Below are positions 5,028 to 29,189 of a DNA stretch of 40,000 nucleotides, one piece after another. Source of the DNA: Hirschia litorea (GTDB lineage: Bacteria > Pseudomonadota > Alphaproteobacteria > Caulobacterales > Hyphomonadaceae); assembly GCF_042665075.1 (NCBI RefSeq), contig NZ_JBHTBR010000002.1, positions 1,288,987 to 1,328,986 of the forward strand, in the 5' to 3' direction. Both the position numbers and the translations under genes were made by a program. The number at the start of each line of letters is the position of its first letter. Position 1 is the stretch's first letter. The notes under the pieces are model-generated. The model was not told the origin of the DNA. It saw nothing but the letters and a program-made list of their open reading frames with translations, and searched no databases.

Positions 5028-5265
5028 GGCCAACGACCTCACAGCCACCCATAAAATCATCTAAAACTCTCAAGAATTGTGCGAGAGAATTAGGCGTTTT
5101 GTATAAAGCATAACGCCTAACAGCTGAATCTTGTTGGGTTTGCCAAAAAAATTGCGTAGAAAGAGCCAGCAGGTCAAATTCAAGACCAATATTTAAGGGG
5201 CTACTACCAGCCATTAGGTGAAGAACCACTGGATCTGGTAAATGGTGATGGACTGGGAGACGCAA

Positions 5266-6387
5266 ATGAAAATTACATCCATTCTGCTAGCAGGCATTGC
5301 TAGCCTATCCTTAATGGGATGCGATGTTTTAATGATGCCAGAAGGCACACCGCCGCCTCCACCGGACCAACCGCCGCCGCCGCCGCTTGAGGGTGACTTT
5401 GAAGAGTTTCCCGCATTACCAGAAGAAGCTGTACCACCTGCTGGCGACGCCCTTGAAACCTCACAAGTCTACACAGACCTTGCAGCGATCAATGCGGTTG
5501 CGTGTACATCTGTTGGCACTCCAGTCCCGACTCAAACCATTGCACAAATCGCAAACGCGTCAGCGCCTCAATCGGCTATAAATGATGCAACTTCCAGCAA
5601 TGTTGTTCAGCCTTCTGTTGTGGGAGCTGTTGGCGGAGCTTTGTCTCTCTCAGCTATACGCGCTGATTTCCCCGGAATTGTAAAATTAGAGCCACGCAAA
5701 AACATCTCTGAATCAAGTTATTCGAGCGGGCATTGCGGTGCCACCCGCATCTCAAACAATTGGTTTGTGACGGCGGCTCACTGCCTCGATGAGCAATATG
5801 ATGTGACAGTCCTCAAAGTCGGACATGAAAAGCTAGATGGCCCAGTTGTGCGTGAAGTGGAAGCTGATTGGGCTGCTTGTCACGCAGCTTATGGCGGACA
5901 AGAAGGCGGTCTAGCAAACGATATCGCGCTTGTGCATGTCACAGACGAAACCGCCGACAGCTTAGTGGACATCCCTATTGCGACGCTCCTAGCAAGTGAA
6001 GATTCACTTACGCCCCTCACCACACCTCAAGCCAAAATGGCTGGATGGGGTCTCACCTCTCCAGGCGGCAGCCTCTCCACGACCCTTTTAGGAACATATG
6101 TTGACGTCAAATCCGTTGGGCCAGCCATTATTAAAGTTGGCTCTATCGAAGGCAAAGGCCCATGTGTAGGCGATTCAGGTGGTCCACTCTTTGTCGATAG
6201 TGAGCAAGCCCAACCCGTTTTATGGGGTGTACTGTCAGGTGTAGAAAAAGGTGAAAACGCTGCCTGTTCTGGTGATTATCTTGCCCGCTACACAAACCTG
6301 CAAGGTTACACAAACTGGCTCAATAATGTGATGATGGCTTGTTCAAGCAATCCCGCATTGTGCCAAAAACCGGGTAATGCGTCCTAA
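5266..6387 (+). CDS. Trypsin-like (S1 family) serine protease lipoprotein with proline-rich linker
   Basis: Lipobox SLSLMGC after the ATG at 5266. Catalytic triad motifs are present: VTAAHC (His), NDIALV (Asp) and GDSGGPL (Ser). Confidence 0.85.
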   Translation: MKITSILLAGIASLSLMGCDVLMMPEGTPPPPPDQPPPPPLEGDFEEFPALPEEAVPPAGDALETSQVYTDLAAINAVACTSVGTPVPTQTIAQIANASAPQSAINDATSSNVVQPSVVGAVGGALSLSAIRADFPGIVKLEPRKNISESSYSSGHCGATRISNNWFVTAAHCLDEQYDVTVLKVGHEKLDGPVVREVEADWAACHAAYGGQEGGLANDIALVHVTDETADSLVDIPIATLLASEDSLTPLTTPQAKMAGWGLTSPGGSLSTTLLGTYVDVKSVGPAIIKVGSIEGKGPCVGDSGGPLFVDSEQAQPVLWGVLSGVEKGENAACSGDYLARYTNLQGYTNWLNNVMMACSSNPALCQKPGNAS

Positions 6388-10756: not shown

Positions 10757-12304
10757 TTAGTCTAGCAAACCAAGGCTTTTACCTATGACGTGAAAGATTT
10801 CATTTTCTTCCATCACACCTGACACAAGGTTAGATCCAGGTCCGCCTGCAAGCAAAGCCACATCTTCCCCAGCGTGGGTTTCAGATGCCATTGGCACAGT
10901 TGCTTGTTGCATAAAGTTTTTCTGCGTCGTGTCTTGCTTGCTCAAATTACTGCGCGCACATCCAGCTTCAGCATCACCATCACCTTCGCCACATACAGCG
11001 CCGGGTCCATTGGCATATCCCAAAGTAGTGTATGGCTTTCCATCCGCACCAGTATTTGGCGTAAATCCATAGCTAGATAGACCTAGAATTGGATTATTGC
11101 GCTGCGAATACCCTGAAATCGTCATTGTGTGTGAGTGATCTGCCGTAACCAAAATCAGCGTATCTTCATCAGACGTCATTTCCAGCGCTTTTGCCACAGC
11201 TTCATCCAGCGCAACTGCATCACTCAAAGCACGCGCCGCATTTCCACCATGATGGCCGTGGTCAACACGTCCGCCTTCAACCATTAGCAGATAGCCTTTA
11301 TCGTTTTGACGAAGACGCGTAATTGCCGCCTCTGTCATTTGAGCGATACTCGGCTCGCCAGCACCATCCTCTTCACGGTCCAATGTGTACTGCATGTGAG
11401 ATGGCTCGAATAAGCCCATCACATGCTTGTCTGACGCAAAATCAATCGCATCAAAACCTGCCTGATCATACACAAATACGTGTGCGTCAGATTTTTCGTT
11501 CCATTCTTCAATAAGGTTGCGTCCGTCTGTGCGGCGGCCACCTTTGTTTGGGTATTCAGGGTCAGATACATCCGCAGGCATAAGGTGTTGACGTCCACCA
11601 CCCAACACAATCTCAAATCCGTCACCGTGATCCCATTCGATCAATTGGCGCGCAATATCTGCGCAATCGCCATCTTCAACTTCTGTATTGTCTTCCCAAT
11701 TGCGCGAAGCAGACTCAGAATATGTTGCAGCTGGTGTCGCGTGTGTAATACGCGCCGTTGACACAATCCCCGTTGCCAATCCCTGCTCTTCAGCAATCTC
11801 CCACAAACTATCTGTTCCCGTGGCTTCCGCAGATGCACAATTTCCGTATTTCGCATCTTGTGTCAGGCCCAATGTGCGACCAGGCACTTTCACGCCTGTC
11901 GTCATGGCTGTTGCAGTTGCCGCAGAATCCGCAATCTGGGAGTCATGCGAATATGTTTTAGACAATGCAGAATATGGCAAACTATCCATCGCCAGATGAT
12001 AACTCTCACCATCCACACCTTTTTGCTGACCCGCATAAATGCGAGCTGCTGTAATCGTGGAAATTCCCATTCCATCGCCAATAAAGAGGATTACATTCTT
12101 AGCAGGCTTCACATCGCGCTTTTCCAACTTGCTTTGAATCGCAGCTGCTGCGCTCACATAGTAGGAATCAGCTGACTGAGATGGCGTAACGGCTTCGCGA
12201 TCGCCAAAAGAGGCAATCTCTGGATCAGTCAAATGGGTGCACGCAGATAGGCCAAACAGGGCCGTTGCGCTCGCGAGTGCGGACAAACGGATAGATTTTA
12301 ACAA
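10757..12304 (-). CDS. Alkaline phosphatase (PhoA/PF00245 family), secreted lipoprotein
   Basis: Signal peptide plus lipobox (GLSAC). Motifs present: active-site region DGMGIST, the nucleophile motif DSAATATAMTTGVK, and the metal ligand regions VTADHSH and DHGHH. Confidence 0.9.
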   Translation of the reverse strand: MLKSIRLSALASATALFGLSACTHLTDPEIASFGDREAVTPSQSADSYYVSAAAAIQSKLEKRDVKPAKNVILFIGDGMGISTITAARIYAGQQKGVDGESYHLAMDSLPYSALSKTYSHDSQIADSAATATAMTTGVKVPGRTLGLTQDAKYGNCASAEATGTDSLWEIAEEQGLATGIVSTARITHATPAATYSESASRNWEDNTEVEDGDCADIARQLIEWDHGDGFEIVLGGGRQHLMPADVSDPEYPNKGGRRTDGRNLIEEWNEKSDAHVFVYDQAGFDAIDFASDKHVMGLFEPSHMQYTLDREEDGAGEPSIAQMTEAAITRLRQNDKGYLLMVEGGRVDHGHHGGNAARALSDAVALDEAVAKALEMTSDEDTLILVTADHSHTMTISGYSQRNNPILGLSSYGFTPNTGADGKPYTTLGYANGPGAVCGEGDGDAEAGCARSNLSKQDTTQKNFMQQATVPMASETHAGEDVALLAGGPGSNLVSGVMEENEIFHVIGKSLGLLD

Positions 12305-12489
12305 GATAACTCTCCGGTGGGGATTTTAAGAATGTGGGTTTGGGACAGACCCTAATAAAGTTTTGCGTCAGTTTCATAGCAAAATCGACTCTATGCGACA
12401 CTTATTAGCGATTAAATCCACCTCACCCAATAGGGATAAGACAAAACTTATCCAACAGCGCGCTAAATTGCTCATACTACGTCCATCAC

Positions 12490-13080
12490 ACCTCATGGGG
12501 CGGCTCGCGACCGATCGTGCTGGGGTGGGATGGTGTACCCTTCAAACCACATGGCGCATTCGGAGTGTCTATGCAGGTGTTGGGCGTGCTCTAGGGGATA
12601 TCCTTTGCGGGGGTGGCTGTCGTCATCCTTAGCGGGCTTTGGGGGCAGGAACCCCTTATAAGAAGGAACCTCACCACGGTAAATCACCATGCGAGGCACG
12701 CAGATTTGCGGCCTACTTACCTGCTGGGGCCCGTGTGCAGATCGGGTCTTGGCTATCACTGCCAAAAATCTGTGTGCCTCGCGCCCTGATTTTACGAAGA
12801 ATGCTTATACTCTCGCATCAGAAATGGTGGCGGAGGTTTTGGTGTATCCGGCCCTCAGGCCGACGAGCAAAGCGAAGGCACAGGTGCGCCAATTTCTAAT
12901 TGGCAATCGCACCGAGCATAGACAGTCAAATGGCGGAGGTTTTGGTATATGTGACGCTCATATCGCCGGCATATCTACAGCGAATCTAAACGCTGACATC
13001 TCTTGCCCAAGACTGCGCCATGGCCTACCAGCAAGAAAGACGACTCACTGAAAAGTCGCAGAGAATACGGATCAAAAGCT
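12490..13080 (+). other. GC-rich segment containing several helices and lacking a credible ORF; candidate structured RNA or decayed element
   Basis: It lies in an 825-bp gap between divergent genes. A 17-bp helix pairs 12691-12707 with 12766-12782, and its single non-Watson-Crick pair is G-T only on the plus strand. Local hairpins occur at 12849-12862 and 12883-12913. The 16-mer TGGCGGAGGTTTTGGT occurs twice (12828, 12931). The ORFs here overlap each other and look non-protein-like. Confidence 0.25.
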
Positions 13081-13130
13081 AGGTTTACATCCATAGCCTG
13101 AGCCGAGTTTGCAAAGGGGAGCAAACGTTC

Positions 13131-14291
13131 ATGATGCTACGCATATTGCGGTCCTTGGGGCCTGCCGTCACTTTTCCATCCATGACAGAAGCCATTCGCG
13201 CTGGCTTTGGTGCGTTTGTCGGTTTGGGGCTAACGGGCCTCTTCGTTCTTTCGCCAATCATTGATCTGCAAACGGGTCTCTATCTCGTTGCGCCCTTTGG
13301 GGCCACGTCCGTATTGCTGTTTGCCGTCCCAAACAGCCCCCTTGCCCAGCCTTGGTCGGCCATTGTCGGCAATACCATCGCCGCTATCATTGCAATTGCC
13401 ATTTGCATGTTCATAAGCGATCCAACCTTGAGCATCGCGCTGTCTGTTGGCCTTGCCATCACGGCCACCATTCTTTGCCGCGCCGTGCATCCCCCCGCAG
13501 GCGCTGTTGCGATGACAGTCGCCATGAGTCCCGAAGCCATTGCGCGCCTTGGCTTTTGGTTTGCGCTCACCCCCATCGCCATTGGCACAATCGCGCTTGT
13601 CGCCGTGGCGATCATCTATGCCAAGCTGACAGGGCGTCATTATCCCTTTCGCCAATATAACGAGCCAAACCAGCACAAGACAAATGATTTAGAACCCATT
13701 GAAAGACTGGGCCTTTCAGAACAAGAACTCACCGATATTCTCGAGCGTTATAGCCAATCCTTCAATCTTGGTGTGGAAGACCTTGCCCGCCTTATCGGTG
13801 CCGCCGAATTACAAGCCGCCGCCCATAGAACAGGCCCGCTCATCGCCGACAACATCATGTCGCGCAATCTTGTGAAAGGGCCGCCAACCATGCCGCTATC
13901 AGATGTTGCCGACCTATTCAGACGGCATAAATTCACAGCCCTTCCCGTTGTCGACTCTGAAGGCATTTTTCTTGGCGTTATTTTCCAGATTCACCTGATT
14001 AATCGCGCCAGAGAAGATTCTCTTCGCCTACATCGTGGTTTTGAACATGTCTTAAAAAGGCTTCTTGATCCTAAGAGAGAACAACCCATTCGCGCCGAAG
14101 ATATTATGAGCGTCACCATTCCCCGCGCCTTTATCTCGACGCCAATTGCCGCCCTTCTGCCCTTAATGGCTGAGGGTGATATCGAAGCCATTCCGATCAT
14201 GGATCATAAGAAAATCATCGGCATCGTCACCCGCACCGACCTCATCGCCGCCCTCGCCCGCACCTATTCCCAATCCCCGCCACCCCCCTAG
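13131..14291 (+). CDS. HPP-family membrane protein fused to a CBS-domain pair
   Basis: The N-terminal TM domain carries the signature CRAVHPPAGA. The C-terminal half has two CBS-like units (IMSRNLV..FTALPVVD; IMSVTIP..IEAIPIMD..IIGIVTRTDL). Confidence 0.85.
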   Translation: MMLRILRSLGPAVTFPSMTEAIRAGFGAFVGLGLTGLFVLSPIIDLQTGLYLVAPFGATSVLLFAVPNSPLAQPWSAIVGNTIAAIIAIAICMFISDPTLSIALSVGLAITATILCRAVHPPAGAVAMTVAMSPEAIARLGFWFALTPIAIGTIALVAVAIIYAKLTGRHYPFRQYNEPNQHKTNDLEPIERLGLSEQELTDILERYSQSFNLGVEDLARLIGAAELQAAAHRTGPLIADNIMSRNLVKGPPTMPLSDVADLFRRHKFTALPVVDSEGIFLGVIFQIHLINRAREDSLRLHRGFEHVLKRLLDPKREQPIRAEDIMSVTIPRAFISTPIAALLPLMAEGDIEAIPIMDHKKIIGIVTRTDLIAALARTYSQSPPPP

Positions 14292-14308
14292 CACTCACGA
14301 CCGAATTT

Positions 14309-14322
14309 CCCGCGAAGGCGGG
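14309..14322. repeat. Left copy of 14-bp direct repeat (putative target-site duplication) CCCGCGAAGGCGGG
   Basis: The exact 14-mer recurs at 28208-28221 in the same orientation, and each copy abuts a terminal inverted repeat. Confidence 0.8.
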
Positions 14323-14345
14323 GGGGTATAGTGATATCCAGAATT
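14323..14345. repeat. Left terminal inverted repeat (GGGGTATAGTGATATCCAGAATT)
   Basis: The 17-bp core GGGGTATAGTGATATCC (14323-14339) is the perfect reverse complement of 28190-28206. The match continues with one indel. Confidence 0.8.
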
Positions 14346-14463
14346 AAATAAATCTGCCCATTTCACCAAAGACAACTGGCGTTCTTAAAATCAAATGACT
14401 TTTGCTATATTACAACGTATGGGTGTTTTAGCTATAAGTGAAAATTAGATTCGGGATTTGGGT

Positions 14464-15480
14464 ATGGGTATCGAAGATTATGTAGCTAGCACGAAATTTG
14501 GTATTGATAACTTGAGTTTTCTATTTGGTGCTGGGACATCATTTGAAGCTGGGTATCCACTCATATCTGGGTTGACAGTCTCCGTATTAGGCGGACTTTC
14601 ACCTGATGAAAACAATAATCTATCAGAAGTATTCACAGCTCTTAAAATTGATGTGAACACCCTAAACATAGAAGAGATTTCTGATTGTGTTCTTAAACAT
14701 TACATTGAAAGTCAGGATATACGGTTTTTTTATTTAATGGATAGAATAAGATCATTGATAAGCGAGGTTATTCTAGATGTTTCAAATCCAAACTTGTCCA
14801 ATCATATATCATTTTTTAATTCTCTAAAACGTAGAGCCTTTAATCGCTCCACTGTTGTCTGGATTTTTACGACGAACTACGATTTGCTCTTTGAAGAAGC
14901 TGCCGCACTATCTGGTGTAAACCTGATAAATGGGTTCACAGGGGTATCGACTAGATTTTATTCAGAAGATGAATTTCATGCTGTGCGAGGTACAAGAAGT
15001 GGTAGTCGTTTTGTAGAAACTCCTGCATTAACTGTAAGGTTAGTTAAACTTCATGGATCAGTTTCATGGTATAAGAATGAAACTAATGTTTTTGAATGTC
15101 ATCCTCAACAAATTCCCCATGACAAGCCACGGTGCATGGTTTTGCCTAGACGCAAGAAAGTCATTGAGACTTTAGATACTCCATATCAGCGACTTTTTCG
15201 AATTTCTAGCGAATTTTTGGGAAGCCAGTGCGTGAATTTAATCGCATCGGGATTTAGTTTTTGTGATGACCATATAAATGATACTCTGATCACCTCCAAG
15301 ATAAACAACGGCAAAATTATTCTGGCTAACTTCTGTGAAGTTGAACCTCCAGAATTGACTGACCTCAGATCAAGACCAAATGTCAGTCATATTACTAAAG
15401 ATAAGCTTATCAATGGTGGGATAGAAACAGCGGGTGCAACCGACTTTTGGAAATTCAGCGAATTTGTAAAACTTTTTTAG
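14464..15480 (+). CDS. SIR2-family (SIR2_2-type) NAD+-binding/NADase protein, partner of HerA
   Basis: Motifs LSFLFGAGTS, IFTTNYDLLFE and VKLHGSVSW are typical of defence-type SIR2 proteins. The gene lies immediately upstream of a HerA-like ATPase. The ORF opens at a TTG at 14458, and the first ATG is at 14464. Confidence 0.8.
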   Translation: MGIEDYVASTKFGIDNLSFLFGAGTSFEAGYPLISGLTVSVLGGLSPDENNNLSEVFTALKIDVNTLNIEEISDCVLKHYIESQDIRFFYLMDRIRSLISEVILDVSNPNLSNHISFFNSLKRRAFNRSTVVWIFTTNYDLLFEEAAALSGVNLINGFTGVSTRFYSEDEFHAVRGTRSGSRFVETPALTVRLVKLHGSVSWYKNETNVFECHPQQIPHDKPRCMVLPRRKKVIETLDTPYQRLFRISSEFLGSQCVNLIASGFSFCDDHINDTLITSKINNGKIILANFCEVEPPELTDLRSRPNVSHITKDKLINGGIETAGATDFWKFSEFVKLF

Positions 15481-15494
15481 GGGGAAGTAAAATT

Positions 15495-17189
15495 ATGGCT
15501 TATCAAATTGGAAAAGTCATTCAGGTCAAAGGCGATCAGATTCATATAGAACTAATTGACCATGATTCTTCTAAACCAATCGGTGTTCCAGAAACTATGG
15601 CGGTAGCAGTACCGACTGATGATGGACCAGAAACTCTACTGATCGGGCAACCTGGCTCGTTTATAGAATTATCCTTACCAAATGGAAGATTGCTGTGCTT
15701 AGTCACAGAAATACAAATGAAGCAGGTTAATATTCCTATCTCAGCAGAAAAATCAGCCATGTTGGAAGGTGAGCTTTTACTAGATAGGGCTGCCAGAATT
15801 CTTGTATCAATTCCTGTGGGAACATTTAATTCAAAGAGCGAATTTGAAAGAGGAACGAACTCCCTTCCAACGGTAAATGCTCCTGCCTTTGCTGTATTAC
15901 CTTCCACAATTGACCGTATTTATGCGAGTTTCGCTGAGGGAGACTTTTCTCTAGGAAAGCTTTCTTTGTTTCCAGAACAAGAAGCCAAAATGAATCTGGA
16001 TGCTTTCCTTGGCAGACATGCAGCCATACTAGGACAAACAGGAGGTGGAAAGTCATGGACCGTAGCGTCTATTTTGCAGAAAATATCTAAATTTCCTCAG
16101 TCTACGGTACTACTTTTAGATCTTCATGGGGAATATACGAACGCCTTTGGTGAAGAAGCTGAAGTAATCGCAGCTAATGAAATAGAAATGCCCTATTGGC
16201 TAATGAACTCTGAAGAGTTGTTGGGTCTGATGATTGATCGAGCTGAAAGTAGCGCGCCCAATCAAAATGCTAAATTCAAAGAATTACTTCAGGAAGCCAA
16301 AGAGAGTAATGTAGAAAATAAAAAATTGGGGTTGGAAAAGATTACAATTGATACTCCGGTGTTTTTTGATCTTAAGTCTATCATCGATGAATTCAGAAAG
16401 TTGGATGTAGAAATGGTCGCGGGTAAAACAAAGCCTGTTAAAGGACCGCTCCATGGGGATTTTACTCGACTATTAATGCGTTTAGAATCTCGTCTAAATG
16501 ATCGTCGTTATGATTTAATTTTTAAACCCAAGACCTACAACACTAGCGCATCGATGAATGATCTATTTCGTAAAATTTTGGGTGAGCAGGAAGATGCTGC
16601 AAAAAAAATTGTTGTGTTAGATATGAGTCCGGTCCCATTTGACGTTCGGGGGTCTATAATTTCACTAGTGCTCAGATGCCTTTTTGATTTTTCATATTGG
16701 TATAGTCGAGTAAATGAGTCTCGGTATCCCATTTCCATCTTTGCTGATGAAGCTCACATATATTTAAGCGACAAATCTAGTGATAGTGCACCACGAGAAA
16801 GTGCAGAGCGAATTGCTAAAGAAGGACGGAAATATGGCCTAAGTTTAACGGTTATTAGTCAGCGTCCGAGAGAGTTATCTTCTACAATCTTATCCCAATG
16901 CGGAAGTTTTCTTTGTTTGAGAATCTCAAATCCAGATGATCAATCTTATGTTCGTAATCTACTGCCCGATTCTGTTAGAGGTATTACCTCTATGTTTTCT
17001 TCATTAACACGTGGAGAGGCTATTTTGATAGGAGATTCAATGATGATGCCTACGAGAATCAAGGTTGATAAACCTAATCCTACACCAAATAGTAACGATG
17101 CTTCATTTGTCGATACTTGGTCAAAGGAAAGAGACGTTTTGGATGTTGAAAAAGTATTGCAGGCGTGGAGAAATCAAAAAATTGTTTAA
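15495..17189 (+). CDS. HerA-like (DUF87/FtsK-HerA superfamily) hexameric ATPase of a SIR2-HerA pair
   Basis: Walker A GQTGGGKSWT, Walker B-like IFADEAHIY and the ISQRPRELSSTILSQCGSFLCLRISNPDD block are present. The ATG at 15495 is preceded by GGGGGAAG. Confidence 0.85.
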   Translation: MAYQIGKVIQVKGDQIHIELIDHDSSKPIGVPETMAVAVPTDDGPETLLIGQPGSFIELSLPNGRLLCLVTEIQMKQVNIPISAEKSAMLEGELLLDRAARILVSIPVGTFNSKSEFERGTNSLPTVNAPAFAVLPSTIDRIYASFAEGDFSLGKLSLFPEQEAKMNLDAFLGRHAAILGQTGGGKSWTVASILQKISKFPQSTVLLLDLHGEYTNAFGEEAEVIAANEIEMPYWLMNSEELLGLMIDRAESSAPNQNAKFKELLQEAKESNVENKKLGLEKITIDTPVFFDLKSIIDEFRKLDVEMVAGKTKPVKGPLHGDFTRLLMRLESRLNDRRYDLIFKPKTYNTSASMNDLFRKILGEQEDAAKKIVVLDMSPVPFDVRGSIISLVLRCLFDFSYWYSRVNESRYPISIFADEAHIYLSDKSSDSAPRESAERIAKEGRKYGLSLTVISQRPRELSSTILSQCGSFLCLRISNPDDQSYVRNLLPDSVRGITSMFSSLTRGEAILIGDSMMMPTRIKVDKPNPTPNSNDASFVDTWSKERDVLDVEKVLQAWRNQKIV

Positions 17190-17201
17190 CGATCAGTCAA
17201 T

Positions 17202-18359
17202 TCAGATACTCCAATTGATCAATTGGGCTAATCGCCTAACCAACTCTGGATTTAACCTGCATACACCGTCTGATTGAATATCAAAATCAGCTCCGGTGAA
17301 AGTCTCTTCTTGAACTAGCTTCAATACAACCCGATCTACAACGGGCCGCATAGGTTCCATAATATCAAGTGCAAAAGATGGCCTTGGTGGTCCTGTTCGT
17401 CCCCTTGAGCGGGTATGAATTATACCCAGCATTGGATCAAAACCAGTTGCGATAGCCTGAAGCTGCATTTGTCCAAGAAGCATTGTGTAGACATAGTTCA
17501 ACATTGCATTGACAGGATGTGTGGCAAATACGTTTTCGGCTTTCCCTTCTCTGAAAAGAGAGGTGCGCGATTTAAAAACAAGCCAGTCGTCAGGAATGGG
17601 ATATTGCTTCGTTGATTTCCACTTTAAATCAATTGACTGCCAAGCTCTGAAATAAGCACTCGCCGCTTGGGCTTCGATTGAAGTTAGCTCTTTCAATTGA
17701 CTATGAGTACCGGTCTTCAATTGCTCAACGAATGCAGGTATTTTTCTTAAAGCTGAATCTCTAGCTTTCGACGTTGGCAAATGAGACTCAAGAGTTTCTA
17801 CAGCGTTATTTAATTTATCTATCATCAAAGGCAGAGCGAAAGATATTTGCTTTGCTTCATCCTTTCTAGCTGCTAATTGCCATTCAAATTTTTCTGGATC
17901 AGCGGATAAACCGCCTGATGTAATTAAAGAAAAGAATTGGCCGTTCCATTTAATTCTAATTAGCGGGATGTTTTGTTCAGTTAGCCAATCCAAGGCATCG
18001 AGTGTAATTGTCCCGTGTCCATCCAAAATTATAATTCTTTTAGGACGATCTAATTCACCCTTAAAATAAGATAATTCTCTATTTTTATTTGGGTAATGCG
18101 TATTACCATCTTTTACAATTAAACGAGCTTTATCGACTTTTAGCGATAAGCCATGGCCCGTTAAAATTAAAGGCTGGTTTTCACGTTCACGGCGCTTTCT
18201 AATTGGTAAAAATGATTGGTATTTGTCTAACCAATAATTGCAGCGATTAGGCCATTCGTGAGAAATGTTATCAGTATTTAAATCCAATTTATTCAATCTA
18301 ATTGTGTCCTTAAGCAGCCAATCAAAACGAATAAGAAATGTCCGATTTAAACACATCAA
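17202..18359 (-). CDS. cas1: Cas1-family integrase (casposase-like, stand-alone)
   Basis: The N-terminal beta domain reads LILTGHGLSLKVDKARLIVKDG..IILDGHGTITLDALDWL..IPLIRIKWNG. The catalytic-domain motifs IEAQAASAYF (Glu), NAMLNYVYT, GIIHTRSRGR (His) and SFALDIMEPMRP (Asp/Glu) are all present. Confidence 0.85.
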   Translation of the reverse strand: MMCLNRTFLIRFDWLLKDTIRLNKLDLNTDNISHEWPNRCNYWLDKYQSFLPIRKRRERENQPLILTGHGLSLKVDKARLIVKDGNTHYPNKNRELSYFKGELDRPKRIIILDGHGTITLDALDWLTEQNIPLIRIKWNGQFFSLITSGGLSADPEKFEWQLAARKDEAKQISFALPLMIDKLNNAVETLESHLPTSKARDSALRKIPAFVEQLKTGTHSQLKELTSIEAQAASAYFRAWQSIDLKWKSTKQYPIPDDWLVFKSRTSLFREGKAENVFATHPVNAMLNYVYTMLLGQMQLQAIATGFDPMLGIIHTRSRGRTGPPRPSFALDIMEPMRPVVDRVVLKLVQEETFTGADFDIQSDGVCRLNPELVRRLAQLINWSI

Positions 18360-19033
18360 ATACTATCACTTATGAATTGATTTCACTAGAACATTCTTGG
18401 GAAGATTATTCCGATTTAGGTATAGATATTTACAATTATAGAAATGAATTAAAACGCTTACGTCACGACAATGGACAAGAAACTAGAGAAGAATCTGATG
18501 CTAGATTACAAAAACTTTTTCAACGTGAAGAAGGTTTAAAGACTCAGCATTTTGATAGAATTCACAACGGGTATTTTGATGCGTTTGGCAATGATATAGA
18601 TAAAGGGGCGGAAAAAACCAAAATACCGCACGCTATGTTTGATGATAGAATTCGTGATTTCGAAATTAATTGGGATTCAAGCACTTTAAAAGCTCATGGG
18701 AAAACGTTCATAGGTATTGAAGTAAGGCCGAGTGATCTCTTGTTGAGAGAAATATCTGAGAGCAAAGACCAATATTCTCAAACGGCAGCCCACATTGTTT
18801 CAAAACCGAATCCATCTAAACAAGGCAGGCCTTCACGTGGCGAACAGATTATGAAGGCAATTCTTCGTCATCACAATGAAAATAAGGCGTGGTTTGACTT
18901 ACCACCTACGGAACGTCGAATTCAGTATTTTAAATTCATAAAAGAAGTTTATCAAAAATGCCCTAAAACAAGCCAAGGTTTTTCATATAAGACTATTGAA
19001 AAATACGAGAAGATTTTTAAAGAAAGTCTATAA
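18338..19033 (+). CDS. Hypothetical protein (231 aa), element-encoded
   Basis: A long AT-rich ORF divergent from cas1. Its 5' end overlaps the annotated cas1 start by 22 nt. No motif recognised. Confidence 0.45.
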   Translation: MSDLNTSNTITYELISLEHSWEDYSDLGIDIYNYRNELKRLRHDNGQETREESDARLQKLFQREEGLKTQHFDRIHNGYFDAFGNDIDKGAEKTKIPHAMFDDRIRDFEINWDSSTLKAHGKTFIGIEVRPSDLLLREISESKDQYSQTAAHIVSKPNPSKQGRPSRGEQIMKAILRHHNENKAWFDLPPTERRIQYFKFIKEVYQKCPKTSQGFSYKTIEKYEKIFKESL

Positions 19034-19043
19034 AAAACAAGGC

Positions 19044-19108
19044 CTATAAAACCTATTTAAAAAAATCACTTTATAGGTTTTTATCTAACTTGCCCATAGG
19101 TTTTATAG
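19044..19108. promoter_or_regulatory. Cluster of three copies of a 13-bp motif ATAGGTTTT(T)ATAG; putative operator/iteron upstream of the polymerase operon
   Basis: CTATAAAACCTAT (19044-19056) is the exact reverse complement of ATAGGTTTTATAG (19096-19108). A third copy, TATAGGTTTTTAT (19072-19084), lies between them. Confidence 0.4.
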
Positions 19109-19168
19109 AGTTCGTTATCTCGATTGTGAAGCGGTTCCCATTGGTCCGCACATTAATCGAGAAGCAAC

Positions 19169-19747
19169 ATGGCCCGCAAACGCGACTATAAAGCAGAATA
19201 CGAACGCCGCTTAGAACGCGGCCGAAAAAAAGGATTGTCGCGCTCACAAGCGCGCGGCCACCCAAAAAAAGGTGAACCCTTGGCAAGTTCACCTCAAGTC
19301 AAACCCAAATCAGATGAGAAGATAGAAGCCGCTCTTCGACACATGCAATTGGGCATGTCGATGACAACAGCTGCGCGCACTGAGCAACTCTCATCCAAAC
19401 GTCTTAGCCAATTCATACACGCGCACGGTATTGCTAAATGGCAAAACCGCAAATGGATCATGAAGGATAGCAGGCCTCGCCGCGTTCCTCATATCAAAGG
19501 TTCATACGCAACCACCGTAACGGTGCCAGACTTTGCAAACGCAAGTCGTGCAGGCCAATACCATAATGCAGTCGGACGGTTTGTGAACACAGGTGATCTG
19601 TCATTCATCGAGCCTTTTGAGGGTGACAGCATCATCGACACCAAAGGTCGTTCTCACCCCTTTGAAACTGACCCCAACAATCTCTTTCGTTACGCTATGA
19701 AAGATGAACCCCCATTCCATGAAATTTATCAAATCGTCTCAAACTGA
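19169..19747 (+). CDS. Basic protein with probable helix-turn-helix (192 aa), first gene of the polymerase operon
   Basis: It has an Arg/Lys-rich N-terminus (KRDYKAEYERRLERGRKKGLSRSQARGHP) and an HTH-like stretch (MSMTTAARTEQLSSKRLSQFI). An AAGGAG for the next gene lies 14 nt downstream of its stop. Confidence 0.55.
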   Translation: MARKRDYKAEYERRLERGRKKGLSRSQARGHPKKGEPLASSPQVKPKSDEKIEAALRHMQLGMSMTTAARTEQLSSKRLSQFIHAHGIAKWQNRKWIMKDSRPRRVPHIKGSYATTVTVPDFANASRAGQYHNAVGRFVNTGDLSFIEPFEGDSIIDTKGRSHPFETDPNNLFRYAMKDEPPFHEIYQIVSN

Positions 19748-19761
19748 AAAGGAGTATTCCA

Positions 19762-20139
19762 ATGGACGATATTATTACTGATGCAGACATTAGACATGAA
19801 AATGCGGTTAGCCGCCTCGGAGGCACAAACAAGCAATGCCTTCATTGCGGTGAAGAAGATGCAAGATGTTTAGAACTACATCATCTCGCCGGACAAAAGT
19901 ATCATGATGACGTGGTTCCATTATGCCGAAATTGCCATCGCAAAATATCTGACACTCAATTAGATCACCCTGATGATCTAAATGCAGCAATGCCTGTCAT
20001 GTTTTCAATAGGTCGCTATCTTTTGGGAATAGCAGATTTCCTTTTGATGATTGCTCATCGTCTGCAAGAGTTTGGACAGCAACTTATAGAATGGGCTCAA
20101 GGTTGCGAATTGGTTCCAATTGAGGAGTCGGTTCAATGA
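19762..20139 (+). CDS. HNH endonuclease
   Basis: It has the zinc and HNH signature CLHCGEED..LELHHL..PLCRNCHRKI. Its stop overlaps the polymerase start (ATGA). Confidence 0.8.
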   Translation: MDDIITDADIRHENAVSRLGGTNKQCLHCGEEDARCLELHHLAGQKYHDDVVPLCRNCHRKISDTQLDHPDDLNAAMPVMFSIGRYLLGIADFLLMIAHRLQEFGQQLIEWAQGCELVPIEESVQ

Positions 20140-22877
20140 TCAAGCTAGAACACAAAACAGCTTACGTTCGCGCCTATTCGGAGAAAACTCAAAAGAAGCC
20201 AGTTAGCCAACATAAGAAGCGAAACAATGTTGATACACCGTCTGACTGGTCACTCGTATTTGATTGCGAAACAAACATTGATGCAGCTCAAGCATTACGG
20301 GTGGGCTTTTATCAAGTCCGCAAGTCAGGTGAGCTTAAATCAGAGGGCTTATTTTATGATCCTGACAATGTGTCGAACTCTGATCTTAAAACCATCCAGT
20401 CTTATGCTGCGAACCATAAGCTAAACATTGGAACCGTCCATGAGTTTAGACACAAAGTATTTCTTCGTGTTGGATATGAAGCACGCGCGTCGATTATAGG
20501 GTTTAATCTACCTTTCGATATATCCCGCATTGCTTTGGACTGTGGTCCTGCGAGAGGAAGCCTTAGAGGGGGCTTTACCTTCAAGCTTTCTGAAGATCGC
20601 ACCAATCCACAAGTCAGAGTGAAGCATCTTAGTTCAACAGCCGCGCTCTATGACTTTGCTAAACCTAAAGGACAAGACACGCCACGCGGAATGCGTAAGA
20701 AGGGTTTGAAAGTTGAACCTCATCGAGGTTATTTCATTGACATAAGAACGATTGCTATGGCCCTGACGAGCCGTAAGCATAGTCTAAAGGGCTTGGCTCA
20801 GTTCCTGAAGGTGGAGACGCAAAAACAAGAGACTGAAGAGCATGGCGGCCCTATAACAGAAGCCTATCTTGATTACGCGCGTGCTGATGTTCAAGCGACT
20901 TGGGAATGCTACGTAAAACTCAAAGCACAATATGACAGTCACGGGTTAGAAACACCGCAGCACCGCATTTTGTCTGAGGCTAGTATTGGAAAAGCTTACC
21001 TTAAACAAAAGCAAGTGAAGCCTTTGCTTGAATGTCAGACTGATCTTCATAGAGAAGACATTGGCCCGATTATGAGTGCTTACTTTGGTGGCCGTGCTGA
21101 AGCGCGTATCCGAAGAGAAATTACTCAAGTTCATTATGCTGATTTCAAGAGCATGTATCCAACGGTAAATGCACTAATGGGGCTTAGTCGCTTTCTTATC
21201 GCAGATGGTTATACCCAATCCGATACAACACAAAATACACAAGAATTCTTGAACACTGCTACTCTTGAAGATCTTCAAAGCAAGAGCACTTGGAAACAGC
21301 TTACAACGCTTGTTTGGCTTAAATCTGATGATGACCTTTTACCCTTCCGCTCCAAGTATGGAGATGAGAAAGGCACGCTCACCATTGGGCTAAATCATAT
21401 CTCTTCAGATACAACGCTCTGCTACTCTCTTGCAGATGTATTGGCTTCCAAAATTCTAACAGGTAAGACGCCTCAAATTGAAAAGGCCATAACCTTTAAA
21501 GCTGGTCCAAAACAAGATGACATTCTGCCAATCAATCTATTTGGAAAGCCTGAATATCGCGTTGATCCACTTAATGAGGATGTGTTTGTAAAGTTCGTCA
21601 ATTTACGTGATGAAGCCAAAGCCCGCAAAGACCCGTTACAACAAGCCATTAAGATCATAGCGAATGCAACTTGCTACGGTATCTTCGTTGAGGTCTTAAG
21701 AGATGAAGCGCCTAAACCTGAAACGCTAAACATCTATGGTCCTGATGGTAATGGCTTTGAAACGAGTTCAACAGCTTTAGAAGAGCCTGGAAAATACTTT
21801 AATCCTGTCTTGGCTGTTCTCATAACAAGTGCAGCGCGACTTATGTTAGCTTTGGCAGAACGTCTCACCACAGATCAAGGCTTAGCTTATACATTCTGCG
21901 ATACTGACAGTATTGCGATGACTAAGCCAGATGACATGAGTGACAAAGATTTCTATCAGCGCGCTCAAAGTGTCATTGATTGGTTTGAGCCGCTAAATCC
22001 ATACCAGAAGCAAGGCTCAATTCTTCAAAGTGAAGATGCAAATTACCATGCTGAAACTGGCAAGTTGGAACCTCTTTATTGTTTAGCTATCTCAGCTAAA
22101 CGCTATGCTTTGTTTAATTTGGATGAAGACGAAAAACCAATCATTAGAAAAGCGTCCGCGCATGGTTTAGGCCATTTGATGGAGCCTTATAATGCAAGCA
22201 ATCCTGCACCTTGTATTCCTAAGCCTGTTATCCCCGTTCATGAGATAGGTGTGAAGCATTGGCAGCATGATTTTTGGTATGTGATCATCACGTCTTTTCT
22301 TAAAGGTGAACCTAACAAAATACCGCGTGATTTCCATCCTGCTTTAGCAAAGCCAGCCCTTAGTCGTTATGGAGCGACTAGCCCTGCAATGCTTTCTTGG
22401 ATGAAACATTTTAACGAGGGTAAGACATACGCTCAAAGTGTGAAGCCGTTTAACTTCCTTACAGCACCGCTTTTGAGAACTGAATGGTACACGCCTGCAC
22501 AATTTGAAGGTAATATACCTGGAGCCAATCCAATCCGCGGCCGTCCTAACGAAGCGTCTAAACCAAAACCGATAGCTCCTTTTGAACGTGATTGCGATAT
22601 TGCGATAAGTAGGATGTTTGATCGGAAGACAGGTGAAACCGTCTCAAAAGAAGTGCTCAAAACCTATGCTGCAGCGCTTGCATCCTACCATTTCAGTCCT
22701 GAAGACAAGTTTGATAATGGCGGATCGTATGATCACGGACCGACACGCAGGAAACACATAAAAGTAGATGGTCTTCAGCTTATTGGGAAAGAAGCAAACA
22801 AGGTTGGAGAAGCTGGACAGCCTGATCCGGTAGCTACGGTGGTAGTCGAATATTCAGACAGTAACGGAATGACGTAA
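20136..22877 (+). CDS. Family B DNA polymerase with 3'-5' exonuclease domain (casposon-type)
   Basis: Motifs present: ExoI LVFDCETN (D43/E45), ExoII GFNLPFDISRI, ExoIII YARADVQATWECY, motif A ADFKSMYPTV (D336), motif B KIIANATCYGIF, motif C FCDTDSIAM (D589/D591, nt 21900-21908) and KxY as AKRYAL. Confidence 0.9.
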   Translation: MIKLEHKTAYVRAYSEKTQKKPVSQHKKRNNVDTPSDWSLVFDCETNIDAAQALRVGFYQVRKSGELKSEGLFYDPDNVSNSDLKTIQSYAANHKLNIGTVHEFRHKVFLRVGYEARASIIGFNLPFDISRIALDCGPARGSLRGGFTFKLSEDRTNPQVRVKHLSSTAALYDFAKPKGQDTPRGMRKKGLKVEPHRGYFIDIRTIAMALTSRKHSLKGLAQFLKVETQKQETEEHGGPITEAYLDYARADVQATWECYVKLKAQYDSHGLETPQHRILSEASIGKAYLKQKQVKPLLECQTDLHREDIGPIMSAYFGGRAEARIRREITQVHYADFKSMYPTVNALMGLSRFLIADGYTQSDTTQNTQEFLNTATLEDLQSKSTWKQLTTLVWLKSDDDLLPFRSKYGDEKGTLTIGLNHISSDTTLCYSLADVLASKILTGKTPQIEKAITFKAGPKQDDILPINLFGKPEYRVDPLNEDVFVKFVNLRDEAKARKDPLQQAIKIIANATCYGIFVEVLRDEAPKPETLNIYGPDGNGFETSSTALEEPGKYFNPVLAVLITSAARLMLALAERLTTDQGLAYTFCDTDSIAMTKPDDMSDKDFYQRAQSVIDWFEPLNPYQKQGSILQSEDANYHAETGKLEPLYCLAISAKRYALFNLDEDEKPIIRKASAHGLGHLMEPYNASNPAPCIPKPVIPVHEIGVKHWQHDFWYVIITSFLKGEPNKIPRDFHPALAKPALSRYGATSPAMLSWMKHFNEGKTYAQSVKPFNFLTAPLLRTEWYTPAQFEGNIPGANPIRGRPNEASKPKPIAPFERDCDIAISRMFDRKTGETVSKEVLKTYAAALASYHFSPEDKFDNGGSYDHGPTRRKHIKVDGLQLIGKEANKVGEAGQPDPVATVVVEYSDSNGMT

Positions 22878-23461
22878 TGGGTTGGGAACGAATGACTGAA
22901 ACAATTAGAGTTTGTGATTGTGGAGAAGGTACCATTACGTACATCTATGAGATGGATGATTGGAACAGAACTCGGAGTTGGGAAGAATTCCAATGCCTGC
23001 ATTGCAAAGCAGAACATCAAATCATCATCGATAAGCGTCAACGAGATCACTTAAAGCGTGAGGCTCTTCTCAAGGAAGCTCAAAAGTTAGCTACTGATTG
23101 CTATCTTGAAAAGTGGTTGGAACATTACAAAGGCCATTCATCGAAGAGAGTTTGGGAAACGCTAACAGGAGGAAAAGTTTATCCAGCGCTTGGAACATTC
23201 TATAGGCATGTTCGTCGTCGTGGACTGGAAGTGGAACTAAAATTTTGGTTCTCCAACGAACTACAAGAGTCACTGAAAATAATAGATGTCGTTGATCAAG
23301 AGATATCCAAACCTCTTGAAGATCGGAATAGAATTCCCGAATTATTTCGACGCTCATTAATCTCCATCTTGGAATATCCAATCAAAGATCGGGCGGAGCG
23401 GCGATTCGTAGAATGGCGGAGCTTTAATATCGCAGACATCTTCGCCGAGGCGGCCGCGTAG
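22877..23461 (+). CDS. Zinc-ribbon-containing hypothetical protein (194 aa)
   Basis: It has CDC..(N33)..CLHC cysteine pairs at the N-terminus. Its start shares one nucleotide with the polymerase stop (TAATG). The last 105 nt overlap the convergent WD40 gene. Confidence 0.5.
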   Translation: MGWERMTETIRVCDCGEGTITYIYEMDDWNRTRSWEEFQCLHCKAEHQIIIDKRQRDHLKREALLKEAQKLATDCYLEKWLEHYKGHSSKRVWETLTGGKVYPALGTFYRHVRRRGLEVELKFWFSNELQESLKIIDVVDQEISKPLEDRNRIPELFRRSLISILEYPIKDRAERRFVEWRSFNIADIFAEAAA

Positions 23462-26400
23462 GATGGAGGCTTTGTCTATCATGTTTTGGTCTATCAGGCG
23501 GATGTAGGGGGTTTCTTTTCCATTCTTGTCTTGTTCTAAAGAAGCAATTAGATGGGAATTACAAAAGCGATCGAAATCATCTTTTTGCGGTTTGATTAGA
23601 CCTGTCCATGTAATATCCCATATACGGACTGTGTTGTCCCAACTCCACGTGAGGATATGTGTTTCATCCTTACTAAAGACGGCACCACTGACCCAGTTCC
23701 CATGTTGTAATGCGGATCCGACCTGCAGGCCAGTTTGCGTATCCCATATCCGCGCGGAGTTGTCATTACTCCAAGTAAGGATACTTGTTCCATCCCTGTT
23801 AAAGACGGCACCATTGATCTCATCCTCATGCTTTAATGAGGCCCCCACCTGCAGGCCAGTGCGAATATCCCATATCCGCGCTGCATGATCATTGCCCCAT
23901 GTGAGAACGCGCGTTTCACCCTTATTAAAAACAGCACCATTGATCCCATCCTCATGTTTTAATGAGGTCCCTACCTGCAGGCCGGTGTGTGTATCCCATA
24001 TCCGCGCTGCATGATCATCGCCCCATGTGAGGATGAGTGTTTCATCCTCGTTAAAGGAAGCACCATTGATATGATCCTCATGCTTTAGAGCTGGTCCAAT
24101 TTGCTGGCCTGTATATACGCCCCATATCCGCGCTGTGTTGTCCCAACTCCATGTGAGGATGCGTGTTCCATCCTTGCTCAAGACGGCACCATTGATACCA
24201 TCCTCGTGTTTTAGAACTGTTCCAATTTGTTGGCCTGTATATACATCCCATATCCGCGCAGTATTGTCCCAACTCCATGTGATGACGCGTGTTCTATTCT
24301 GGCTAAAGACGACATCATCGGTTTCCCCCACATGCTTCAATGTGAAGGATCCAATCTGCTGGCCGGATTGTACGTCCCATGTTCTCACTGTGTTGTTCCC
24401 ACTCAGTGTGAGAACGCGCGTTTCACCCTTATAAAAAACAGCACCATTGATCCCATCCTCATGTTTTAATGAGGTCCCCACCTGCAGGCCGGTGTGTGTA
24501 TCCCATATCCGCGCTGTATCATCATCGCCCCATGTGAGGATGCGTGTTTCATCCTCGTTAAAGGAAACACCTTTGATCCAATCTTCATGTTTTAGTACGC
24601 GTTCATTTTGTACATTCCATATTCGTACTGTATCGCCCCCACTCAGTGTGAGAATGCGTGTTCCATCCTTGCTAAAGGTGGCACTACTGACCCAATCCTC
24701 ATGTTTTAGAGTTGGTCCAATTTGCTTACCGGTTTGTGCGTCCCATATTCGTGCTGTATCATCATCGCCCCATGTGAGGATGCGTGTTTCATCCGCGTTT
24801 AAGGAAGCACCATTGATATTATCGTTGTGAATTAAGGCTGGCCAGACCTCTCTCCCTGTTTGAGCATCGAAGCGAAGCGTTGCGTTAATCGTTATTGTAA
24901 ATATATATGTGCCGTCTTTGTTTAAAATGGCACCTTCAACCTTACTAGTATGCTCCATTGTAGGGCCAATTTGCTGGCCTGTTTGTGTGTCCCACAACCG
25001 CGTTGTGTTGTCTCCACTCCATGTGAGGATGCGTGTTCCATCCTTGCTAAAGGTGGCACCACTGACCCAATCCTCGTGTTTTAGAACTGGTCCAATTTGC
25101 TGGCCTGTATATACATCCCATATCCGCGCTGCATCATCATCGCCCCATGTAAGGACGCGCGTTTTACCCTTGTTAAAAACAGCACCTTTGATCTCGTTCT
25201 CATACTGTAGTGCGGGTCCTATATGCTGCCCGGTTTGCACATCGTAGATGCCGGCGGTGCTATCATTTTTCCAGGTGAGTATACGTGTTCCATCCTCACT
25301 AAAAAGGGCGTCATTGACATTTTCCTCATACTGTAACGTGGGACCAATCTGCTGTTTCGTTTGTGTATCCCATACCCGCGCGATGCTATCATTACTCCAA
25401 GTAAGGATACGTGTTTCATCCTCAATAAAGGAGGCCCCAATTATCTGTACCCCCCCACTAAAGAGGGAGTTATTGACATAATCAACGTGTTTTAGGGGGG
25501 AGCCGATCTGGTGCCCGGATTGTGCGTCCCACAACCGCGCTGTGTTGTCCCTATTCCATGTGAGGATGCGTGTTCCATCCTTGCTCAAGACGGCACCATA
25601 CACATGGCCCTCATGCTTGATACTCAATGTATGGTTTGAGAACTTCTGGGCATTTGACCTAAATCGGCTAAAGGCTTCTTTAGATGCTGGAGACAGGAGT
25701 GTATCTTGAGCGCCAAGAATTACAAGTTTGGATGCTCGCAAGTAATCGCCTTCATCTTCATACTGTCCAGCGACACTTGCAGTAATCAGAGATTCTATTC
25801 TTGCATCATTTCTTATTTTCCTGATTGTTTGCCACCCACCCCACAGAAGGCCTAGAAATGCAATAGAAATGGTGGCGAGAGTGAAACGTTGCCAAAAGAT
25901 TCTTTGTTTTTCTTTTTCCTCAGCTTTACGAATTTGCTCTTCTTCTTTGTGTTTAATCGTTTCCTGATGCGTGTGACATGCATTTAGATAGACCTCTCCC
26001 ACCGGTCCGATGAGTGATTTCAGATCTGCACGCTTAAGAAGGTCCAATGCTTGCGTCAATCGTTCGCCACTGTGAACAAGCAGATCGCTCTTGTGTTCTA
26101 TTTCTTGAGTTTGCTGCTTACGCCATAATTTCGCGGCTTGCTGAACCTGATGCAAGTGCTCAAGTTGAAAACGTTCTTCACCTATCCATGCAGAAAGTCC
26201 ATGCCAATGCCGCAGCACGGCTTCATGTGAGACTTCAATACAGCTTTCGGCTTTGACTATTGATTGCACAAGTAAGCGTTCATCTACAAAATGCGCAACC
26301 AGCTTATGTAGATGTATGGGTAAGCTAGAAAGAAAGGATACACGCCGCATAGGGGATGAATTTGCTTCATCAAGTTGGACAAGCCAAGGAATAAAAATCT

Positions 26401-28183: not shown

Positions 28184-28207
28184 AATTTCGGATATCACTA
28201 TACCCCC
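28184..28207. repeat. Right terminal inverted repeat (AATTTCGGATATCACTATACCCCC)
   Basis: Reverse complement of the left TIR. The core 28190-28206 is a perfect match to 14323-14339. Confidence 0.8.
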
Positions 28208-29146: not shown

Positions 29147-29189
29147 GAAATAAATGTCAACTTTTTTGATAAACCTGACGAATTACCCC

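Follow-up and report, generated by a model that had tools for sequence, protein, structure and literature searches.

SIR2-HerA anti-phage systems consist of a SIR2_2-family gene followed by a DUF87/HerA gene, with N/D/H catalytic residues in the first product and Walker motifs in the second, and structures are available for the systems of Paenibacillus sp. 453MF (8w9l, 8wiv) and E. coli (8j4u) as well as under 8yhx and 8yho. HerA forms a hexamer that assembles with a SIR2 dodecamer or tetradecamer, N163, D165 and H212 are the putative catalytic residues of the Paenibacillus SIR2, and protection is lost when catalytic residues are mutated in SIR2 or in HerA (PMC11472057). We here analysed a stretch of 40,000 nucleotides (nt) from the chromosome of Hirschia litorea (Hyphomonadaceae; assembly GCF_042665075.1, contig NZ_JBHTBR010000002.1, positions 1,288,987 to 1,328,986 of the forward strand), referred to below as the window, in which such a SIR2-HerA pair lies within a casposon, a transposon that encodes Cas1.

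Casposons have been studied mainly as the source of CRISPR adaptation, and little attention has been paid to their accessory genes in the period since most defence systems came to light; casposase families besides family 2 were described in a 2021 paper as little known. The family-3 element HenMar-C1 of Henriciella marina shares with the element in the window a solo cas1 casposase, PolB, a candidate HNH gene, terminal inverted repeats, a target-site duplication (TSD) and a Hyphomonadaceae host, but its cargo differs, comprising a Cas4-like nuclease-helicase fusion, a C5 methyltransferase and a Ser/Thr kinase (PMC4046053). Krupovic et al. 2014 noted Sir2-like genes in three casposons and, in a separate element (AceAut-C1), a HerA-like helicase, suggested chromatin or replication roles for them, and described some casposon cargo as "implicated in defense functions" (PMC4046053). 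Pipolins, which encode piPolB, resemble this element in being integrative, in encoding a PolB and in joining exchangeable defence cargo to a small conserved core, but they use tyrosine recombinases and direct repeats rather than Cas1, terminal inverted repeats and a TSD; the pipolin study applied PADLOC to 48 mostly archaeal casposons as a comparison group, which showed a lower share of defence genes than did pipolins (PMC11551731). A preliminary description of the present locus had proposed that defence systems riding on casposons were uncharacterised. The proposal stood in the narrower sense that we found no description of a SIR2-HerA pair on a casposon in the literature searched, in which Sir2 is mentioned together with casposons only by Krupovic et al. 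2014, whereas as a general statement it is qualified by the Sir2- and HerA-like genes in that study and by the application of PADLOC to casposons in the pipolin paper. SIR2-HerA and the casposon each belong to a known kind; their combination, and the role of this casposon family as a carrier of defence systems, appear to be undescribed.

The best explanation for the locus as a whole is the insertion of a casposon with SIR2-HerA as cargo, the cargo having an anti-phage role by homology, and we assign this reading a probability of about 0.8. The element is an intact self-replicating family-3 Cas1 transposon that occupies positions 14323-28207 (13.9 kb), as delimited by its terminal inverted repeats and TSD. 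The features that define the element and the pair are as follows.

14309 to 14322, no strand: left TSD copy, 14 nt, CCCGCGAAGGCGGG, an exact repeat found by script directly 3' of the HPP-CBS gene.
14323 to 14350, plus strand: left terminal inverted repeat, at the cas1-side end, from a repeat search; its first ~28 nt are kept in the related loci L081 and L082.
14464 to 15480, plus strand: SIR2_2-family protein of 338 amino acids (aa), a predicted NADase effector (Pfam SIR2_2, 7.5e-10; PADLOC SIR2 PDLC04081).
15495 to 17189, plus strand: HerA/DUF87 ATPase, 564 aa (Pfam DUF87, 7e-35, and HerA_C, 3.7e-06; PADLOC HerA PDLC04105).
17202 to 18296, minus strand: cas1, encoding the casposase, 364 aa (Pfam Cas_Cas1, 1.4e-40).
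28179 to 28207, minus strand: right terminal inverted repeat, from a repeat search.
28208 to 28221, no strand: right TSD copy, 14 nt, CCCGCGAAGGCGGG, an exact repeat.

The terminal repeat motif GGGGTATAGTGATATCC is located at 14323-14339 on the plus strand and at 28190-28206 on the minus strand, with these being its only two occurrences in the window against 0.01 expected by chance, and the repeat arms reach 31 nt at 87% identity. The direct repeat CCCGCGAAGGCGGG is perfect and likewise occurs exactly twice in the window (0.01 expected by chance). Between the repeats, the genes are arranged in the order SIR2-HerA, cas1 on the opposite strand, a 231-aa open reading frame (ORF), a 192-aa ORF, an HNH-like gene, PolB, a 194-aa Cys-rich ORF, and a gene for a TIR-STAND-WD40 protein on the opposite strand. 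The ORFs of the window were scanned with the Pfam and PADLOC hidden Markov models (HMMs), with PADLOC results therefore being matches to individual profiles rather than calls by its system-level rule. No cas2 was found among these ORFs, and no CRISPR array was detected in the window, the sole tandem array of which corresponds to the WD40 repeats. The element thus combines cas1 without cas2 or a CRISPR array, PolB, terminal inverted repeats and a TSD, as do family-3 casposons, and it is assigned to this family on the basis of 52% identity of its Cas1 to that of Henriciella marina and of the core that it shares with its relatives. Its Cas1 is 75-76% identical to those of metagenomic relatives and retains all invariant columns of a 16-sequence alignment.

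The insertion event was resolved by comparison with a metagenome-assembled genome, GCA_041156605.1 (L087). RecQ encoded beside the element is 86% identical to RecQ of Hirschia maritima and 98% identical to that of L087, and 3' of its RecQ gene the latter genome carries the uninterrupted sequence ACCGCATTT-CCCGCGAAGGCGGG-AACCCAGCC, in which the 14-mer is present only once, corresponding to an unoccupied target site. Identity to L087 resumes precisely at 28208, immediately past the right terminal repeat, and amounts to 96% over 124 nt; the 9-10 nt that precede the left TSD copy also match. The existence of this empty site indicates that all 13.9 kb behave as a single insertion.

The duplicated target is itself a GC-rich stem-loop, CCCGC-GAAG-GCGGG, and is probably a terminator. 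The TSDs of the family are also GC-rich palindromic stem-loops, an example being CCCCGC-CTAC-GCGGGG in L082. A perfect stem of at least 5 bp was present in 16 of 27 family TSDs, compared with 1.5 expected and a maximum of 6 across 500 shuffles. We found no description of such hairpin duplication for family 3 in the literature; duplication of a whole hairpin parallels the duplication of palindromic CRISPR repeats. A tRNA gene, the target of family-2 casposons, was rejected as the target here given that Rfam and tRNA scans of the window yielded no match.

The SIR2 and HerA genes are co-oriented, with SIR2 first and 14 nt between them. The SIR2 start codon is located 141 nt from the outer end and 113 nt from the inner end of the left terminal repeat, and an alternative TTG start is present at 14458. 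PADLOC profile PDLC04081 matched SIR2 at residues 1-340 (E 7.4e-132) and PDLC04105 matched HerA at residues 3-562 (E 6.8e-172). SIR2 contains GAGTS (residue 22), TTNYD (136) and KLHGS (195); its N138, D140 and H197 correspond in the alignment to N163, D165 and H212 of the Paenibacillus protein (8w9l), and its only matches in the PDB were SIR2 chains of solved SIR2-HerA complexes (8j4u_A, 8e-16; 8yhx_G, 1.4e-14; 8w9l_A, 2.8e-12). HerA contains Walker A GQTGGGKS at 180 (K186), Walker B FADEAH at 416-421 and ISQRPRE at 454, and matched HerA chains in structures of defence complexes, namely 8ziq (5.7e-84), 9c1m (3.3e-82), 8xau (1.8e-74), 8wiv (1.2e-68) and 8j4u (7.9e-35), with the listed matches ranging down to 3.5e-27. 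It lacks the long COOH-terminal arm of the 696-aa Paenibacillus HerA. An effector with N/D/H catalytic residues, an ATPase with Walker motifs, and an adjacent, co-oriented and conserved gene pair are thus all found, and we assign the pair by homology to the SIR2-HerA family as a new subfamily member, with a function predicted on the same grounds. A DUF4297-HerA system was rejected for the pair, given that the upstream partner is SIR2_2 and that the HerA subunit alone resembles 9c1m and 8xau.

The preliminary description had anticipated most of these features. The SIR2 and HerA motifs that it listed are present where it placed them, the ORF coordinates agree with its spacing of 14 nt, and its distance of about 120 bp from the left terminus falls between our two measurements. 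Its match of the pair to the SIR2-HerA architecture is substantiated by the full-length, defence-specific PADLOC profiles and by the two-gene order, and its placement of the pair inside the inverted repeats of a Cas1/PolB element by the perfect TSD and the empty site in the related genome. Profile searches could have placed the two proteins in non-defence SIR2 or HerA clades, an outcome that it had named as refuting; instead, the SIR2-HerA defence profiles matched over the full length. The other refuting outcome that it had named, a location of the pair outside the terminal repeats in related elements, did not materialise either, with the pair lying within repeats whose authenticity the TSD and the empty site support.

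To place the element among its relatives, we scanned species-representative genomes with a Cas1 profile and obtained 80 loci, mostly from Hyphomonadaceae and other marine alphaproteobacteria. The window proteins were compared with these 80 loci by tblastn, with SIR2, HerA and the TIR-STAND protein being compared with 82 casposon loci. The remaining genes of the element are listed below.

18338 to 19033, plus strand: orf231, divergent from cas1 and poorly conserved, from the ORF call.
19169 to 19747, plus strand: orf192, a conserved core protein present in 68/80 relatives and 87-89% identical in L081 and L082.
19762 to 20139, plus strand: orf125, an HNH-like divergent zinc-finger protein, a core gene present in 62/80 relatives.
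20136 to 22877, plus strand: family B DNA polymerase (PolB), a core gene present in 64/80 relatives and 85% identical in L082 (Pfam DNA_pol_B_2, 2e-07).
22877 to 23461, plus strand: orf194, Cys-rich and translationally coupled to PolB, its start overlapping the PolB stop.
23357 to 27817, minus strand: TIR_2-nSTAND1 NTPase-WD40 protein of 1486 aa, in the PolB-side slot (Pfam TIR_2, 3.4e-16; nSTAND1, 3.7e-66; WD40 propellers).

Cas1 was found in all 80 loci, together with the counts given above for orf192, the HNH-like protein and PolB. The PolB translation shows the motifs FDCETN, SMYPT and CDTDS. The match of orf125 to Pfam HNH (E 0.036) falls under the gathering score and covers profile positions 1-46 of 47. 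No Pfam family above threshold was obtained for orf231, which is present in only 5 of the 80 relatives and is 35% identical in L081, and orf194, whose homolog in L082 is 54% identical, had no family match in the Pfam and PADLOC scans. Most of the 80 relatives terminate in the motif GGGTATAG and carry TSDs of 14-20 nt. Between the cas1 stop and the terminus on that side, these elements have anywhere from 76 nt to ~7 kb, and the stretch that separates the end of PolB from the opposite terminus spans 0.3 to 5.2 kb.

As had been suggested, homologous casposons were surveyed for variable cargo at the same position, and variable defence cargo was indeed found in the same slot. We profiled 97 cargo ORFs of at least 160 aa on the cas1 side and 88 on the PolB side. 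PADLOC matches on the cas1 side were to LmuA/B/C, an Argonaute-associated restriction endonuclease (Aga-REase), PDC-S35, TIR effectors, PDC-M36A, PDC-M60B, ZorD and pVip, and Pfam matches were to ABC-3C components, KAP NTPase, Mrr, BrxC/D, a Schlafen-type helicase and a caspase domain; the systems represented in this slot across the relatives include Lamassu, ABC-3C/PDC-M68, PifA, Shango, Avs2-like, PDC-S49 and others. On the PolB side, the matches were to restriction-modification and DRT components, namely type II methyltransferases, Drt3-type reverse transcriptases, and EcoRI, BfiI and Eco57I domains, as well as to KAP. The largest cargo ORF matched a PADLOC profile at E<=1e-8 in 8 of 19 TSD-validated elements (Avs2-like, SngA, a subtilase, a type IIG restriction-modification enzyme, PDC-S49, LmuB, PifA and Drt3b), a count that is a lower bound. 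L064 and L065 (155-4760) gave a HerA-like tblastn match limited to the P-loop, in a different, PolB-side module of three genes encoding a type II methyltransferase, a 454-aa protein and a 707-aa HerA-like/mad8-like ATPase.

The sister elements L081, L082 and L001, all metagenomic, encode Cas1 proteins that are 75-76% identical to that of the window. L082 is complete, with a length of 10.4 kb and the TSD CCCCGCCTACGCGGGG, and its orf192 and HNH-like proteins are ~87% identical to those of the window; its cargo consists of an ABC-3C/PDC-M68-type module on the cas1 side and a single 297-aa ORF on the PolB side. The cargo of L081 is a 1115-aa protein without a family match, and that of L001 a 587-aa protein. 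The termini of the window, L081 and L082 are kept for ~28 nt and then diverge, which identifies the slot between the cas1 stop and the terminal repeat as a site of cargo replacement. Given that sister elements with cores 76-88% identical hold unrelated defence modules in the same slot, cargo appears to have been exchanged between casposons.

Two further observations were made on these loci. PolB, orf192 and the HNH-like protein are 85-88% identical between the window and L082, with Cas1 being only 76% and orf231 at most 35% identical, and across the 80 loci the closest relatives by Cas1 are not the closest by PolB. These differences are a hint that the cas1 half and the PolB half have recombined. 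The cargo of L081 and L082 is co-directional with cas1, unlike in the window, in which HerA converges on cas1 with 12 nt separating their stop codons. Read-through from either gene would here be antisense to the other and could couple expression of the cargo and the transposase.

The protein in the PolB-side slot has the layout of a TIR-STAND defence protein, with an NH2-terminal effector, a central STAND NTPase and a COOH-terminal repeat sensor. No PADLOC system model (Avs1-5, bNACHT and similar) matched it, with only a marginal match to HEAT-ARM (1.4e-06) being obtained; a PDB sequence search with the TIR-NTPase region gave no matches, and the protein was found by tblastn in none of the 82 related casposons. 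By eye, its TIR domain contains the motif SPECLREF, which could supply the catalytic Glu. Should this residue indeed be catalytic, both cargo modules of the element would be predicted to be NAD+-consuming effectors.

Homologs of the SIR2-HerA pair were found mainly outside casposons. The nearest, in Rhodobacteraceae, Ruegeria, Sulfitobacter and Roseibium, are 77-78% identical for HerA and 54-57% for SIR2, and the closest relatives are stand-alone cassettes of marine alphaproteobacteria. In each of the 15 relatives whose sequence 5' of HerA is readable, the most distant having 61% HerA identity, SIR2 directly precedes HerA, which points to an obligate two-gene unit. Four loci (L083-L086) have the same gene order with gaps of 10-13 nt and proteins of 342 and 565 aa. 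The sole exception to the non-casposon contexts is L099, one of 17 metagenomic HerA relatives, in which a 31-codon remnant of the Cas1 COOH-terminus (4780-4872, 74% identical, with stop codons before it) ends 84 nt 5' of the pair on the same strand; SIR2 is at 4956-5987 (53% identical) and HerA starts at 6001 (71% identical), with the contig ending within HerA. L099 probably represents a casposon that has decayed and that held cargo of this type, and given that its orientation of cas1 and the pair differs from the convergent arrangement in the window, it looks like an independent or rearranged capture. Two tandem ORFs of ~330-347 aa lie 5' of the Cas1 remnant and by eye read as nucleotidyltransferase/HEPN-like.

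The SIR2-HerA, cas1 and orf231 genes had been judged by eye to be more AT-rich than the polymerase operon, and both GC content and GC at third codon positions (GC3) confirmed this. GC values were 0.371 for SIR2, 0.392 for HerA, 0.394 for cas1 and 0.348 for orf231, compared with 0.437 for PolB, 0.491 for orf192 and 0.479 for the host flanks, and the corresponding GC3 values were 0.29, 0.30, 0.32 and 0.27, compared with 0.37 for PolB, 0.47 for orf192, 0.42 for the TIR-STAND gene and 0.41-0.57 for host genes. The low GC3 that the pair has in common with cas1, and that is unlike the host, argues that SIR2-HerA was linked to cas1 before arrival in this host. The further proposal that the AT-rich block reflects a mosaic origin did not hold to the same extent as the block itself. 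The GC difference of cas1 minus PolB is -0.043 in the window, compared with a mean of -0.006 (standard deviation 0.029) in 57 relatives, 7 of which are as extreme, and SIR2-HerA cassettes elsewhere are also AT-rich relative to their hosts (0.44-0.50 versus 0.54-0.64). With the window lying within the spread of the family, AT-richness was rejected as proof of a cas1/PolB mosaic, and the block is weak evidence of mixed origin.

The interval between the RecQ and alkaline phosphatase genes differs among three Hirschia-like genomes, which marks the neighbourhood as a variable region, and it is a variable hotspot independently of the casposon. The HPP-CBS segment to the left of the casposon (12170-14298, GC 0.54) has no counterpart in L087 or in H. 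maritima (L088), the latter having abhydrolase, M48 peptidase and PhoX genes at this place, and L087 contains an assembly gap (a run of N) in the interval. Just beyond the right terminal repeat, an AT-rich segment (28332-29187, GC 0.35) is absent from the empty-site genome L087; it contains orf130 (28602-28994, minus strand, 130 aa), with only marginal matches to winged helix-turn-helix/Csa3-like families (E 0.006-0.07), and a perfect 17-nt inverted repeat at 29112-29147.

The locus is explained as follows. The conserved core consists of cas1 facing a divergently transcribed orf192-HNH-PolB operon, with a variable cargo slot at each end before the terminal repeat of ~28 nt; SIR2-HerA fills the cas1-side slot and the TIR-STAND-WD40 protein the PolB-side slot. 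The Cas1 casposase inserted the element into a GC-rich terminator-like hairpin, duplicating 14 bp. From the solved and tested homologs (PMC11472057, PMC11514289, PMC13434337) we infer that a HerA hexamer would dock a ring of 12-14 SIR2 subunits, that phage infection would release the SIR2 NADase and unleash the ATPase and nuclease activities of HerA, and that the resulting collapse of NAD+ would arrest growth of the infected cell (abortive infection). The cassette would thereby probably benefit the host and favour retention of the transposon. Cargo exchange may run via recombination of co-resident elements, from the conserved 3' end of cas1 to the terminal repeat.

Several observations weigh against this explanation. 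In comparison with the solved SIR2-HerA systems, from which the present pair differs also in being carried by a casposon, SIR2 is distant, with E values of 1e-12 to 1e-16 to the nearest functionally tested proteins. HerA is nearer to the structures of DUF4297-HerA (9c1m and 8xau, the closest identified solved relative at 3e-82 and 2e-74) than to those of SIR2-HerA (8wiv, 8j4u), so that the details of coupling and triggering may differ. In that system the partner is a DUF4297/Cap4-like nuclease rather than SIR2, the predicted NADase, so that the effector is exchanged on a similar HerA chassis, which suggests swapping of SIR2 and DUF4297 effectors on closely related HerA proteins. Promoter-like sites 5' of SIR2 were no commoner than in shuffled sequence, and no terminator or terminator-like hairpin was found between HerA and the convergent cas1. 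With tblastn, neither SIR2, full-length HerA nor the pair was found in any of the 82 related casposons, and no second copy proving transposition of the SIR2-HerA cargo was obtained. This absence from the relatives, together with the stand-alone, non-casposon nature of the closest cassettes and the variability of the RecQ-alkaline phosphatase region, would also fit entry of the pair into a casposon that was already integrated and never mobilised it, with the position within the terminal repeats being incidental. We consider such late entry improbable, given that the GC3 of the pair fits the neighbouring cas1 and orf231 rather than the host, that many relatives with intact terminal repeats and TSDs have defence genes in this slot, so that cargo there is routinely mobilised, and that L099 provides a second adjacency of cas1 and SIR2-HerA. 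The cassette also brings with it neither repeats nor an integrase, and its DNA homology to other cassettes is limited to coding sequence.

The remaining alternatives concern the role of the pair rather than its arrival. It might serve the element, either as an addiction or stabilisation module or as a weapon against plasmids and other transposons, instead of defending the host against phages: SIR2-HerA is toxic and of the abortive type, with its activation linked to DNA ends and nicking (PMC13434337), and toxin-antitoxin-like modules are present in other or neighbouring cargo, such as the tandem ORFs of L099 (by eye) and RES-Xre beside L086. The homologous systems tested nevertheless protect against phages (PMC11472057, PMC11514289), and we judge an element-serving role to be somewhat less probable still than late entry, although sequence does not discriminate between the two roles, which are not mutually exclusive. 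Decay of the pair into a non-functional passenger is very unlikely: no homolog of >80% identity was available for a selection test and no dedicated promoter or terminator was recognisable, but the ORFs are full length in comparison with the profiles, all catalytic motifs are intact, and the spacing and gene lengths agree with those of relatives. The roles proposed for such genes in other casposons by Krupovic et al. 2014 (PMC4046053) would make HerA a replicative helicase and Sir2 a deacetylase for casposon replication or chromatin handling. This is the least credible of the alternatives, with the absence of the pair from all 82 core-sharing relatives indicating that it is not needed for the life cycle, its homologs outside casposons being obligate SIR2-HerA pairs, and the best profiles being defence-system HMMs matched over their full length. 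Insertion of a casposon with SIR2-HerA cargo of predicted anti-phage function thus remains our preferred explanation.

The element and its relatives indicate that complete innate defence systems are carried beside cas1, and exchanged, by bacterial casposons, and that these target short palindromic hairpins, which adds a class of transposon to the known carriers of defence islands. Tn7-like transposons, described by Benler et al. in 2021, reportedly also have a conserved transposition core, a variable cargo rich in defence genes and site-specific insertion beside conserved features. Their transposase belongs to another family, and they encode no polymerase of their own. The present element offers a tractable model: it is intact, its target is defined and the corresponding empty site is known, and with it the specificity of family-3 casposases and the proposed merger of a casposon with an innate defence locus are testable. 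The wider pattern of defence slots and hairpin targeting in family 3 is of more interest than the single case. Whether the family-3 casposons of marine alphaproteobacteria are, as a whole, an undescribed general vehicle for innate defence, with two slots of cargo turnover, integration that duplicates a hairpin, and a Cas1 integrase and an innate effector joined in one unit, we regard as an evenly balanced proposition. If it is correct, extant casposons would already unite the two ingredients that have been proposed for the origin of CRISPR-Cas.

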